Shown here: positions 42,656-64,000 of the stretch, in pieces | How the letters are laid out: each line of letters opens with the position of its first letter | Numbering within the stretch: the first letter of the stretch is position 1 | IMG/VR virus record: IMGVR_UViG_3300021963_000027 | Location: 1-64,000 of that record | DNA: 64,000 nt | From: a virus | Reading direction: 5' to 3' (one strand) | Notes under the pieces: generated by a model | What the model saw: only the letters and a program-made list of their open reading frames with translations | The model's database searches: none | Told to the model about the DNA's origin: nothing | Position numbers and translations under genes: made by a program

Positions 42656-42748
42656 ATTATTATTTATCTCCAATGTTAATATTTTTGCTCTATCCAATAA
42701 ATAAAGATATTGACTAATTAAAAAACTAGAATACACTTTTCATACAAT

Positions 42749-52066: not shown

Positions 52067-52141
52067 GTTGTCGGTGGCGAAGTGGTAACGCGAGGCTGAA
52101 TTAACAGCAAGAAACGTGAGTTCGATTCTCACCCGACGACA
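52067..52141 (+). ncRNA. tRNA-like RNA with 6-nt AATTAA anticodon loop
   Basis: Acceptor GTTGTCGG/CCGACGAC, D-arm, GTGAG-TTCGATT-CTCAC; starts at +1 of M-promoter. Confidence 0.7.
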
Positions 52142-60983: not shown

Positions 60984-61373
60984 TCAATAGGGTTGCCATT
61001 CCCAATCACCGTTTTTCATTTCCCAACAATTACTCAAAAATGTTTCTCGGTATGCCGAGTGATTACCCTTTTCAATAATAACATCATCTGTATTAATAGC
61101 GTATTTTGTCCAATCTCCATCAATATTTTTAATATTTACAATATCCCATAAACGATTTTCTATTTCCACTGTCTCCATCTGTCCTTTATTCCTACGCATT
61201 TGGGGTACGATAATTTTGAGTAATTCCGTATCCTCCGACTTCAAAAAATGTCGTTCCCAATTCTCAAAAAGAGTCGCAAGATACAATCTTTCAAATTCGC
61301 TCAATTCGGGAGTGACATCATCTCTGTAATCCAACACCTTTTTCCATTTTTTCAATAATTCGTCGCTCGACAT
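60984..61373 (-). CDS. protein resembling N-terminal propeptide of T4-type major capsid gp23
   Basis: ELLKKWKKVLDY..ATLFEN. Confidence 0.55.
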   Translation of the reverse strand: MSSDELLKKWKKVLDYRDDVTPELSEFERLYLATLFENWERHFLKSEDTELLKIIVPQMRRNKGQMETVEIENRLWDIVNIKNIDGDWTKYAINTDDVIIEKGNHSAYRETFLSNCWEMKNGDWEWQPY

Positions 61374-61445
61374 AGAAAAATATTACTCCATTTTTTATTT
61401 TTGTCAACCCCTTGACTTATTTAAAAACTAGAATACAATCAGAAC

Positions 61446-61640
61446 ATGAAAGACAGATATACATTATACACAGAACCTAATGGAGATCGATGGATTTCCG
61501 CTCCCATAAATGGGGGAGACATTGGTGATCTTTCTGATATCGTGGAAGAACTCAACATGCTTTACAATAAAAACAAAGCATATGCAAAAATAATTGAATC
61601 ATACGAGAAAAGACTTGACAAATCGGAATCTCGTGATTAA
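61446..61640 (+). CDS. hypothetical protein
   Basis: Leaderless after TTGACT-N16-TACAAT M-promoter. Confidence 0.8.
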   Translation: MKDRYTLYTEPNGDRWISAPINGGDIGDLSDIVEELNMLYNKNKAYAKIIESYEKRLDKSESRD

Positions 61641-61653
61641 ATACTTACTCAAT

Positions 61654-61725
61654 TGCGGGATGGAGCAGTGGTAGCTCGTCTGGCTCATAACCAGAAGGTC
61701 GTCGGTTCGACCCCGACTCCCGCTA
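61654..61725 (+). tRNA. tRNA-Met(CAT), initiator-like (1:72 mismatch)
   Basis: Cloverleaf, TCTGG-CTCATAA-CCAGA. Confidence 0.9.
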
Positions 61726-61731
61726 CATAAA

Positions 61732-61802
61732 GCGTCCTTGATGTAATGGTAACATGCCTTCCTTCCAAGTAGGTTACGTGGGTTCGAGTCCCACAGGACG
61801 CT
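61732..61802 (+). tRNA. tRNA-Gly(TCC)
   Basis: Cloverleaf. Confidence 0.9.
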
Positions 61803-61858
61803 CCCAAAAATAAAAAAACTTGAAAAAGTTGAAACAAATGCTAAATACTAATAACAAC

Positions 61859-61921
61859 ATGAAATACGAACAATATAATCAAGAGAAGGCAGCGACACCG
61901 AATAGGTGGCGGCGTGAATGA
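61859..61921 (+). CDS. 20-aa putative leader peptide MKYEQYNQEKAATPNRWRRE
   Basis: After TAAATA, before terminator. Confidence 0.5.
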   Translation: MKYEQYNQEKAATPNRWRRE

Positions 61922-61949
61922 TTGTGTTTTAGTGCATATTGAATTTCGC

Positions 61950-61980
61950 GCCTCATCTGAAAAGATGAGGTTTTTTATTT
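61950..61980 (+). terminator. intrinsic terminator/attenuator upstream of tRNA cluster
   Basis: CCTCATCT-GAAA-AGATGAGG-TTTTTTATTT. Confidence 0.85.
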
Positions 61981-62055
61981 TAGAGGTGAACGAAGCAACC
62001 TGAATTGCTAGAGAGTGGTGAAAGACTAATAGAGAATGTTGAAGTATATTTTAAT

Positions 62056-62128
62056 TCCCAAGTAGCTCAGTTGGTAGAGCGCGTGACTGTTAATCACGTT
62101 GTCGTAGGTTCGAACCCTACCTTGGGAG
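62056..62128 (+). tRNA. tRNA-Asn(GTT)
   Basis: Cloverleaf. Confidence 0.95.
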
Positions 62129-62133
62129 CAGAA

Positions 62134-62209
62134 GGGTGTGTAGCTCAGTTGGTAGAGCAAGAAGCTTTTAACTTCGTGGTCATAGGTTCAAATCCTGTCA
62201 CACCCACCA
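62134..62209 (+). tRNA. tRNA-Lys(TTT)
   Basis: Cloverleaf with CCA. Confidence 0.95.
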
Positions 62210-62210
62210 T

Positions 62211-62285
62211 GCTTCTATCGTCTAATGGTTAGGACAGGTGGTTTTCATCCACCAAATAAGGGTTCGATTCCCTTTAGAAGTGCCA
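62211..62285 (+). tRNA. tRNA-Glu(TTC)
   Basis: Cloverleaf with CCA. Confidence 0.95.
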
Positions 62286-62287
62286 AT

Positions 62288-62358
62288 GCCTCCATAGTTC
62301 AATGGTAGAACCCCCGATTTGTAATCGGGAGATACAGATTCGAATTCTGTTGGAGGCT
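62288..62358 (+). tRNA. tRNA-Thr(TGT)
   Basis: Cloverleaf. Confidence 0.9.
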
Positions 62359-62386
62359 CTTGACAAAATAATTTTTATGATACAAT

Positions 62387-62473
62387 GTGTTACCGCCAAA
62401 GTTGGAGAGTTGGGAATGACTGTAAATCATTTGCCTTCGGGCTGAGTAGGTTCGAATCCTATGTAACACACCA
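62387..62473 (+). tRNA. tRNA-Tyr(GTA)
   Basis: Cloverleaf, long variable arm, CCA. Confidence 0.9.
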
Positions 62474-62476
62474 TAT

Positions 62477-62549
62477 CGGGAGTTGATGTAACTTGGTAGC
62501 ATGAGGCATTTGGATTGCTTTCGTCAGAGTTCAAATCTCTGGCTCCCGA
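62477..62549 (+). tRNA. tRNA-Pro(TGG)
   Basis: Cloverleaf. Confidence 0.9.
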
Positions 62550-63111
62550 CTATTTTTTTCATATTCCAAAATCCATCACCAGCTAAAAAATGATCTTCTA
62601 TATGACAAGTGGGACATAATATTTTTAAATTTTCTAATGTGTTATTGTGTCTATTTCTATCTATGTGATGCACTTGTAAAATTTCTGGATATTTATCATA
62701 TCCACACCCAAAACATTTTTTATCATTAGCCCTAAAAGCTATATCTCTGTAATTAGTAATACCAGTTCCATAATGATCTGGTCTTATTTCTGGAAAATGA
62801 TTTTCTAATCGTTGTGCATTATCTTTACACACTCTACTACAAAAATATAACCCAGATTTACTTTTATTAAGATGTGATTGTCTCCTTTTAAATAAATTTT
62901 TACAAAAAGAACACGATATATTAACCATACTTCTTCGAGAAGTAGTATCTGCCCAGCATTTATGGGAACAAAAATTTTCAGAATTATTTTTGAAAATTCT
63001 TTTAGGTCTATCAGAAACTTCACCACATCCATCACATTTAAATTCTACGAATGTTCTCAACTTCCCTTCGGTATCTCTCTTTTTAAAATCTCTAATAATT
63101 AAAGTGGGCAT
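62524..63111 (-). CDS. HNH homing endonuclease with Zn ribbons
   Basis: CFGCG..VHHIDRNRHNN..LCPTCH. Confidence 0.9.
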   Translation of the reverse strand: MPTLIIRDFKKRDTEGKLRTFVEFKCDGCGEVSDRPKRIFKNNSENFCSHKCWADTTSRRSMVNISCSFCKNLFKRRQSHLNKSKSGLYFCSRVCKDNAQRLENHFPEIRPDHYGTGITNYRDIAFRANDKKCFGCGYDKYPEILQVHHIDRNRHNNTLENLKILCPTCHIEDHFLAGDGFWNMKKIVGSQRFEL

Positions 63112-63169
63112 AATATAATACTTACACTTTTATCCACTTTTTACAAATATATTTATCCACATTTTTAAT

Positions 63170-63243
63170 TGGGCGTTAGTGTAATGGTAGCACCGCAGAT
63201 TTTGATTCTGTTAGTAGAGGTTCAAGTCCTCTACGCCCTACCA
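63170..63243 (+). tRNA. tRNA-Gln(TTG)
   Basis: Cloverleaf with CCA. Confidence 0.9.
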
Positions 63244-63284
63244 CAATAACTTCAATTTCTCAAGTCAATATATTAAATAATATT

Positions 63285-63659
63285 ATGATTACATTTTCAA
63301 AATTTTTCGAATTGTTTTTAGAAAATTACAATGAAGTTCGGATATACAATAGTGTGGTGCGTCTTCCCATGGATAAACCTTATGGCTTTTGGATGGATAA
63401 GCATGGTAATTTCGCAGTTGTTAAAGGTGGAATGGGAGCGCATGAAAAAATTGGTAATTTGATTTTGGATCAACTTGGTATAGATTCAGGAGGAAGTGTG
63501 TATGAAACATTATTTGAAAATGGTTGGGTTCGTGTCATGTTAGACAGGGGTAAAACATATTATGAGATTCAACATGGAAGAAGATTAACTCCTATTCAAA
63601 GACGTAATTTATCTTTTATTAACGAATTCTACGAATTAAAAGGAGTTGAAGAAGGTTAA
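63285..63659 (+). CDS. hypothetical protein, late-type promoter, internal-protein-like N-terminus
   Basis: TAAATA 5 nt upstream; MITFSKFFELFLE. Confidence 0.8.
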   Translation: MITFSKFFELFLENYNEVRIYNSVVRLPMDKPYGFWMDKHGNFAVVKGGMGAHEKIGNLILDQLGIDSGGSVYETLFENGWVRVMLDRGKTYYEIQHGRRLTPIQRRNLSFINEFYELKGVEEG

Positions 63660-63666
63660 TATTTTT

Positions 63667-64000
63667 ATGAGAACATTTCTAGAATCCTTTTATGATATCC
63701 AAGAGCTATCTCCGAATAGTAAGCTACAGGATATCTTGAATACTCACTATCTCAAAGTCTATCGTTCATCGGCTCGTCCCAATAAGAGTGATTATACTTC
63801 AGGTTCTCATGCAGGAACTAAACAACAAGCTCTAATTCGTGCCGATTATATGATCAATGATGAAGGGAAATACGACAAGTATTATCTTTATGAATTGACA
63901 ATTCGAATTGATAAAGTGTATCCCAAGTTACTATCTGATGATGGAACAGATCATGGATATGATTATGTAAAAGATTTAGGTGATTATGATATTGCTTTCT
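63667..64000 (+). CDS. hypothetical protein (3' truncated), possible ART-like fold
   Basis: MRTFLE..VYRS..GSHAGTKQQALIRA. Confidence 0.65.
   Translation, partial: MRTFLESFYDIQELSPNSKLQDILNTHYLKVYRSSARPNKSDYTSGSHAGTKQQALIRADYMINDEGKYDKYYLYELTIRIDKVYPKLLSDDGTDHGYDYVKDLGDYDIAF

Follow-up and report, generated by a model that had tools for sequence, protein, structure and literature searches.

Organization of the tRNA cluster and its promoters

We analyzed the first 64 kb of the 184-kb IMG/VR record IMGVR_UViG_3300021963_000027 (36% G+C), a stretch of 64,000 nt that we refer to as the window. The main tRNA cluster of the window contains, in order, a promoter (P1), tRNA-Met, tRNA-Gly, a 249-nt spacer (61807-62055), six further tRNA genes, an HNH endonuclease gene, and tRNA-Gln. 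The tRNA genes are all on the plus strand and were called by ARAGORN and the Rfam tRNA model. They are tRNA-Met(CAU) at 61654-61726, tRNA-Gly(UCC) at 61731-61806, the six genes Asn(GUU), Lys(UUU), Glu(UUC), Thr(UGU), Tyr(GUA) and Pro(UGG) at 62056-62550, and tRNA-Gln(UUG), the last member of the cluster, at 63170-63243. The HNH gene (62524-63111, minus strand; Pfam HNH_3 and HNH) occupies the position at which relatives carry tRNA-Ala(UGC) in the order Pro-Ala-Gln. The window genome has lost tRNA-Ala, yet it keeps two Ala codons in a short open reading frame (ORF) of the spacer. That ORF is followed, still within the spacer, by an intrinsic terminator and by a purine-rich block of 74 nt (block A, 61982-62055, plus strand) that separates the terminator from the first tRNA. 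A sequence-only reading made earlier on this DNA had proposed that a leader peptide and a strong terminator gate the tRNA cluster and that six tRNAs follow the terminator. The six tRNAs were found, and tRNA-Gln, beyond the HNH gene, is a seventh 3' of the terminator. The proposed gating can apply to these seven genes but not to tRNA-Met and tRNA-Gly, which lie 5' of the putative attenuator, under P1 and outside control by the terminator.

The phage is T4-like, based on its Gp23 capsid protein, Gp20 portal protein, T4-type terminase, tail sheath and family B polymerase. DNA searches returned matches to tRNAs only, and the nearest cultured capsid protein is approximately 33% identical, indicating that there is no close cultured relative; the source is an uncultured T4-like lake phage, and its host is also uncultured. 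At G000 66176-67696 (L033:2176-3696), 4 kb 3' of the tRNA cluster, there is a gene for a CCA-adding enzyme that combines a PolyA_pol head domain with an HD domain, which suggests tRNA 3'-end repair.

Three promoter-like classes were found in the phage. The early class is a promoter-like motif of 20 nt (consensus ttAAAAAACTAGAaTAcAaT) with approximately 95 copies at window 2842-61424 (plus strand), each 6-7 nt 5' of an ATG, a spacing that implies, from the sequence, that each small early gene has its own promoter and that the mRNAs are leaderless. The motif is also present 5' of a tRNA-Met at 42748 and of an odd tRNA at 52067, the 5' end of which would coincide with the transcription start. The late-like class, [CT]TAAATAAT followed by 3 nt and then ATG, stands before many ATGs of G000 64-184 kb on both strands (for example at 163885 and 170170, and on the minus strand at 82338 and 144167). 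It resembles the T4 late promoter TATAAATA, and leaderless mRNAs are implied here too. The third class is small and consists of TTGACA, 16-17 nt and TAAATA. Its members include P1 (61615-61643, plus strand; TTGACA, 17 nt, TAAATA), which was read in the sequence, falls in the same class as the second promoter of the cluster (P2) in the genome-wide pattern search, is kept in the relative L013, and serves tRNA-Met and tRNA-Gly.

P2 lies within the spacer (61820-61847, plus strand) and is a sigma70-type promoter of the same small class. The sequence-only reading had noted its TAAATA element, which is present as the -10 hexamer at 61842-61847, with TGC just before it (extended -10 TG at 61839-61840) and with a -35 hexamer TTGAAA (61820-61825) 16 nt upstream; the promoter scan lists the -35 of P2 with the offset hexamer AATACT and an 18-nt spacer. 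Among the leader variants of related phages, the -35 and the TGC-TAAATA are conserved, and the intervening 13-nt spacer varies in sequence but not in length. The -10 element is separated from the leader ATG by 10-11 nt in all variants, compared with 5-6 nt in the leaderless protein genes of the phage. The 5' untranslated region (UTR) of a P2 transcript would therefore be only about 5 nt, a configuration that is atypical for the protein genes of this phage. Due to this short 5' UTR and the different -10 spacing, the mode by which the leader would be initiated is uncertain; transcripts from P1 would instead carry a long A-rich leader. The leader has no Shine-Dalgarno sequence, which is normal for this phage because a Shine-Dalgarno-like 4-mer precedes just 11% of its long ORFs. 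The number of promoter-like and terminator-like sites over these 4 kb exceeds shuffle expectation only slightly.

The leader reading frame and three exclusive RNA helices

The leader ORF (MKYEQYNQEKAATPNRWRRE; 61859-61921, plus strand) consists of 20 codons and a TGA. The 20-codon frame ending in AGG TGG CGG CGT GAA TGA had been recognized in the sequence-only reading and is present, with its ATG at 61859 rather than at 61860. Codons 2-15 encode Lys Tyr Glu Gln Tyr Asn Gln Glu Lys Ala Ala Thr Pro Asn. All 14 of these codons are readable by tRNAs of the phage lineage, a set that includes the tRNA-Ala present in relatives at the Pro-Gln junction and replaced by the HNH gene in the window, and all seven tRNA species 3' of the terminator are represented. 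When these 42 nt were shuffled 200,000 times by each method, 14 in-set codons out of 14 came up once with mononucleotides preserved and twice with dinucleotides preserved (p 5e-6 to 1e-5). Runs of at least 15 in-set codons begin at 2 of the 7,618 ATGs in the six frames of the genome, and the leader alone covers nine tRNA types. For comparison, in-set codons account for 39-41% of codon usage in the phage genes overall, and the other two frames of the leader DNA contain 5 and 6 in-set codons of 20. A longer ORF starting from TTG at 61820 was considered and rejected, being out of frame in the relative L022.

The 3' portion of the leader would serve a different function in the predicted RNA structure, where codons 16-20, including the Arg-Trp-Arg-Arg codons, correspond to region 2 of a classical attenuator. 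The region as a whole has a fold z-score of -3.2. Minimum-energy folds contain a hairpin, H1 (61872-61928, plus strand), that would act as an anti-antiterminator; its outer stem (61872-81/61919-28) includes the stop codon, and its inner 1:2 hairpin pairs CACC of region 1 (61896-99) with GGUG of region 2 (61905-08). The energy of H1 is -16.9 kcal/mol for the whole and -9.3 kcal/mol for the inner hairpin. Region 2 (61904-61918, plus strand; AGGUGG, a C bulge, GGCGUGAA) can pair either with region 1 or with region 3 (61945-61958, plus strand; UUCGCGCC followed by UCAUCU), such that GGUG at 61905-08 has two partners, CACC at 61896-99 and CAUC at 61954-57. Region 3 forms the 3' strand of the antiterminator, and its positions 61950-58 double as the 5' arm of the terminator. 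The strong intrinsic terminator described in the sequence-only reading (61950-61981, plus strand) was borne out, consisting of a 9-bp stem at 61950-61971 with a GAAA loop and a U tract (T6AT4) extending to 61981, with an energy of -13.4 kcal/mol. H1, the antiterminator and the terminator are thus three mutually exclusive helices in the classical 1:2, 2:3 and 3:4 arrangement, and the stop codon (61919-61921) abuts region 2.

Pairing between 61908-61919 and 61943-61952 had been suggested from the letters alone, with an overlap of only 2-3 nt with the terminator that made the switch appear doubtful. Pairing segments do lie at these positions, but by constrained folding the best register is a contiguous core of 8 bp, 61911-61918/61945-61952. 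The core is extended across a single bulged C by six further pairs, 61904-61909/61953-61958, which first became apparent in the relatives. The full antiterminator is therefore a 14-bp helix, 61904-61918/61945-61958, and the small overlap does not hold: the helix takes the whole 5' arm of the terminator, an overlap of 9 nt. The antiterminator domain (61904-61958) has an energy of -21.3 kcal/mol.

Comparison of leader variants supports these helices. With six variants aligned, antiterminator pairing was kept at 98.7% (13 counted pairs), compared with 42-63% in slid controls, and two antiterminator pairs changed on both sides (C-G to U-A and G-C to A-U). The terminator stem was 100% paired in the six variants, with a U-A to C-G change passing through a U.G intermediate. 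The residue G61950 is common to both helices; in L025 it is an A, changed together with its antiterminator partner, and the terminator pairing is still kept. The outer stem of H1 is maintained through G.U to A-U changes, and its inner core CACC/GGUG is invariant. The middle pair of the antiterminator core is U.G, C-G, A.A or C.U depending on the variant, and is thus mismatched in two variants. The covariation statistics are modest, with 29-36 of 500 shuffles reaching the observed values and with approximately four independent lineages. A second candidate antiterminator, 61881-89/61950-58, was rejected because it is lost in L013.

Conservation of the module and its change with the tRNA repertoire

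The sequence-only reading had proposed looking for the same layout before tRNA arrays of related phages. Pattern scans of IMG/VR and JGI metagenomes recovered the module in at least 17 contigs, representing eight distinct leader sequences. The metagenome matches L023 and L027 and several GC-rich viral matches were chance matches, and the scan of genome contigs gave one match, also due to chance, in an archaeal MAG. The start codon (ATG), the length of 20 codons and the stop codon (TGA) are the same in all eight leader variants. Relative to the window ORF, one 3-nt insertion and one 3-nt deletion are present in the group that diverges most (L025, L029, L030, L039-42); just outside the ORF, indels are 1, 2 or 3 nt, and the ORF is conserved through 25% sequence divergence. 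Codon changes within the leader are mostly non-synonymous, indicating that the peptide as such is not conserved, and 9 of 12 derived states remain in the tRNA set (hand count on the variant ORFs). The terminal Arg-Trp-Arg-Arg codons change for pairing rather than for peptide, as with CGT to TGC in L025.

Leader codons also change together with the tRNA genes. An Ile codon (ATT, codon 15) occurs only in the leader of L022, and of the relatives L022 alone carries a tRNA-Ile(GAU) gene within the gated cluster. Leaders without Ala codons are associated with clusters without tRNA-Ala, and leaders with Ala codons belong to a clade with tRNA-Ala in 6 of 8 contigs. The match is imperfect in the divergent group, which has Ser (AGC, TCT) and Asp (GAC) codons without a cognate tRNA, and one relative has Gln codons in its leader and no tRNA-Gln in its 87%-complete record. 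Wherever a contig continues beyond the terminator, the module is located directly 5' of tRNA genes; the sequences of G003 (L004/L009) and L040 stop before a downstream gene is reached. In L022, an early-type promoter motif followed by a minimal ATG-TAA start-stop (L022:3960-4000) is found directly 5' of P2.

The segment between the terminator and the tRNAs was searched for another promoter, a feature that the sequence-only reading had named as counting against its proposal. None of the three promoter classes of the phage was found there. Scored with a weight matrix derived from 92 early-motif copies, 61972-62055 reached -15 bits (rank 937), revealing no early promoter, and a pattern search of the stretch from the terminator to tRNA-Asn detected no promoter of the TAAATA or TTGACA-N17 type. 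A candidate -35, TTGCTA, varies among relatives, and TATATT at 62045-50 was rejected because its transcription start would fall inside tRNA-Asn. Farther downstream, the window carries a 27-nt insertion (62360-62386) that ends at the 5' end of tRNA-Tyr and contains TTGACA (62360), then 15 nt and TGATACAAT (TACAAT at 62381-86); this was likewise rejected as a promoter since it abuts the tRNA 5' end, would start inside the tRNA, and is not found in relatives.

Block A itself is more conserved than the leader and is near-invariant across relatives whose leaders differ by 25%. It has no conserved fold and no covariation (consensus energy -6 kcal/mol), no second copy in the genome, and no Rfam match. 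Some relatives carry in its place an unrelated block B of similar length (the blocks are approximately 75-95 nt; examples are L039:7240-7330 and L004 of G003), for which the fold z-score is +0.4 and no Rfam match was obtained. Block B is found with both leader types, and this independence of block swaps from leader type indicates that the attenuator and the post-terminator block are separate modules. The conserved block A could hold a promoter of a type that is not among the three listed classes.

These features bear on an alternative in which the module is a self-contained small gene, producing an RNA of approximately 125 nt from P2 to its own terminator, with a role as a small regulatory RNA or as the message for a functional peptide of 20 amino acids, and with the tRNAs being transcribed independently. 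Such a gene would be consistent with a discrete promoter-to-terminator module with stable hairpins, with recombination of the module with two different downstream blocks and different tRNA orders, with a 5' UTR that is very short for a protein gene of this phage, and with the potential for a promoter in the conserved block. We nevertheless consider it unlikely. A functional peptide would not be expected to vary in sequence while frame, length and codon class are kept, and a pure RNA gene has no need of in-frame indels or of a fixed ATG or TGA. The small gene also leaves unexplained the codon match (p approximately 1e-5), the Ile and Ala co-changes, and the position of the module directly before tRNA genes wherever the contig reaches past the terminator; in addition, the module matches no Rfam family and no promoter of a known class lies downstream.

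Predicted switch, related systems and possible trigger

To relate ribosome position to RNA structure, we performed masked folding with a ribosome footprint of P-12 to P+13 and with the nascent RNA extending up to 61958, before region 4 exists. The full antiterminator formed with a probability of 0.92-0.95 for an A site at codons 10-12 (Lys Ala Ala), and the 8-bp antiterminator core had a probability of at least 0.84 with the A site at codons 6-15. When the A site was placed at codons 16-20 or at the stop codon, the antiterminator probability was 0. Masked folding gave a similar outcome for the related L014 and L022, and for L025 the effect was weak at equilibrium. For the full-length free RNA, the state containing H1 and the terminator was calculated at -33.6 kcal/mol and the antiterminator state at -29.0 kcal/mol. 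Equilibrium folding alone thus predicts no clean switch, and the closeness of the two states in the full-length RNA indicates that the decision must be kinetic, as it is in known attenuators; the case for a switch depends on the order of folding during transcription.

Based on these calculations, the following model is proposed. Host RNA polymerase would start at P2, or arrive by readthrough from P1, and a ribosome would translate the 20-codon leader, with codons 2-15 testing the decoding of Lys, Tyr, Glu, Gln, Asn, Ala, Thr and Pro. With fast decoding, the ribosome would reach codons 16-20 or the stop codon and mask region 2 (61904-61918); region 3 would then pair with region 4, the terminator would form, and transcription would end 5' of the tRNAs. 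If the ribosome stalled with its A site at approximately codons 9-14, it would cover region 1 and leave region 2 free to pair with region 3 as the 14-bp antiterminator, which would occupy the 5' arm of the terminator and let the polymerase enter the tRNA genes. If the leader were not translated, H1 would hold region 2 and the terminator would form. The net effect would be a feedback in which slow reading of the cognate codons leads to production of the tRNAs and a sufficient supply stops it.

We consider it likely, from sequence comparison and folding models, that the main tRNA block is gated by this element, acting as a ribosome-mediated (leader-peptide) transcription attenuator. The sequence-only reading had likened the layout to that of amino-acid operon attenuators, and each component of that layout was recovered computationally: the promoter, the short ORF, the matched codons, the three exclusive helices, and a stop codon at which region 2 would be masked. 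Support for the proposal is thus stronger than the sequence-only reading itself had put it. From this arrangement we infer that the leader is translated and that readthrough is regulated. According to the model, the phage would probably make more of the gated tRNAs when ribosomes read the matching codons slowly.

Part of the checklist fits this model less well. The modelled ON window does not extend to codons 2-8, among which are both Tyr codons, and a stall at these codons still favors the terminator. The poor fit of the early control codons is compatible with attenuation that does not involve sensing by a ribosome, in which the leader RNA would be bound by a protein or by uncharged tRNA in a TRAP-, PyrR- or T-box-like manner and the presence of the ORF would be incidental. 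Support for the alternative helices does not depend on translation, and the GGUGG-type motifs and the purine-rich block could serve as binding sites. We regard this possibility as very unlikely, because ORF conservation and the codon match are left unexplained by it, because the position of the stop codon is precisely that at which region 2 would be masked by a terminating ribosome, and because L025 keeps the pairing of region 2 despite changes in the supposed binding motif there. There was also no match to a T-box or other riboswitch model. For the T-box covariance model (RF00230), none was obtained in 61000-64000 at E values of up to 10, and in a search of 61807-62055 against Rfam 15 only the neighboring tRNAs matched, with no match to a small RNA family. 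A T-box-like reading of the AGAGA and GGUG motifs was rejected for want of Rfam support. The relative L039 gave weak, sub-threshold terminator-like Rfam matches.

It is highly improbable that the element is a plain constitutive terminator or insulator ending the P1 and P2 transcripts, with a fixed leak or a separate start feeding the tRNAs and with the ORF and pairing due to chance, since the strong, canonical form of the terminator and the near-background number of promoter- and terminator-like sites in these 4 kb are what it would predict, but a 14-bp alternative helix with compensatory changes, an ORF kept through 25% divergence and the strong codon statistics are not, and a promoter approximately 100 nt ahead of such a terminator would be purposeless.

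The proposed attenuator shares its organization with the enterobacterial amino-acid leaders (thr, sensing Thr/Ile; ilvGMEDA and ilvBN, sensing Ile/Leu/Val; trpL, hisL, pheL and leuL), which also have a promoter, a short ORF rich in control codons, 1:2, 2:3 and 3:4 helices, and a stop codon placed so that the finishing ribosome masks region 2. The masked-folding logic of the phage leader is that of the trp, his and thr leaders, and the multivalent enterobacterial leaders likewise sense several amino acids with one leader. In the enterobacterial leader-peptide attenuators the antiterminator and terminator overlap by 6-11 nt (PMC3064811), a range that includes the 9 nt of the phage element. The phage element differs in that it would regulate tRNAs rather than biosynthetic enzymes, and in its leader eight or nine codon families are each represented one or two times, rather than one or two families in runs. 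Due to these two differences, the signal sensed by the phage leader would be the supply of tRNA itself and not only its charging. The phage leader also lacks a Shine-Dalgarno sequence, has a 5' UTR of only about 5 nt, and has no sequence homology to the enterobacterial leaders.

Two further systems are related in their logic. In the E. coli pheST operon, stalling in the pheM leader reports poor decoding and raises a component that restores decoding, as proposed for the phage element; the component controlled by the pheST attenuator is the aminoacyl-tRNA synthetase for one amino acid, and that controlled by the phage element would be a block of tRNA genes. T-box riboswitches similarly choose between terminator and antiterminator in response to the state of tRNA, but they bind uncharged tRNA directly, without translation, and control synthetase and amino-acid genes. 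A full-text literature search found no description of leader-peptide control of tRNA genes in phages or bacteria. What would be new here is the application of leader-peptide attenuation to a tRNA gene block, with a checklist of multiple codons; the kind of mechanism is already known.

It is an open question why tRNA genes are carried by phages and when they come into use, and there are two main proposals, compensation for codon usage and replacement of tRNAs destroyed by host defenses. A leader that tests the decoding of the codons served downstream would show that tRNA supply is regulated by demand. Such a leader would bring tRNA genes, in addition to amino-acid genes, under classical attenuation, and would represent a compact sensor of approximately 120 nt with control codons that can be recoded singly, one that could serve as a natural part for tRNA-responsive genetic circuits. 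The trigger may be depletion or cleavage of host tRNAs, as the sequence-only reading proposed, or plain supply and demand. Known anticodon nucleases attack Lys, Glu and Gln tRNAs with U34 and Asn and Tyr tRNAs with G34, and the checklist includes all of these classes. A trigger involving cleavage of host tRNA is consistent with the identities of the gated tRNAs and with the CCA-adding/HD enzyme downstream. In its strongest form, the leader would be a counter-defense sensor, such that cleavage of any host tRNA on the checklist causes a stall and switches on replacement tRNAs near a repair enzyme, a reading that we offer tentatively and hold to be possible rather than probable. If it is true, codon-matched attenuators may be a widespread and as yet undescribed form of regulation of phage tRNA genes.

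Two unusual tRNA genes were observed in the relatives. L028 (651-726) and L024 (5189-5264) carry a copy of tRNA-Thr(UGU) that is identical to that of the window except for a change of the anticodon from TGT to TGA (Ser UCA) and a 4-nt duplication in the variable loop; this copy may possibly be a recoding or missense tRNA, or else a decaying gene. In L025 (3629-3710, minus strand), the attenuator is followed first by a hybrid tRNA, part Asn and part Lys, for which ARAGORN made no call. It consists of the 5' acceptor and D arm of tRNA-Asn joined to the anticodon arm of tRNA-Lys, and apparently arose by a deletion between the D arms that the two tRNAs share.
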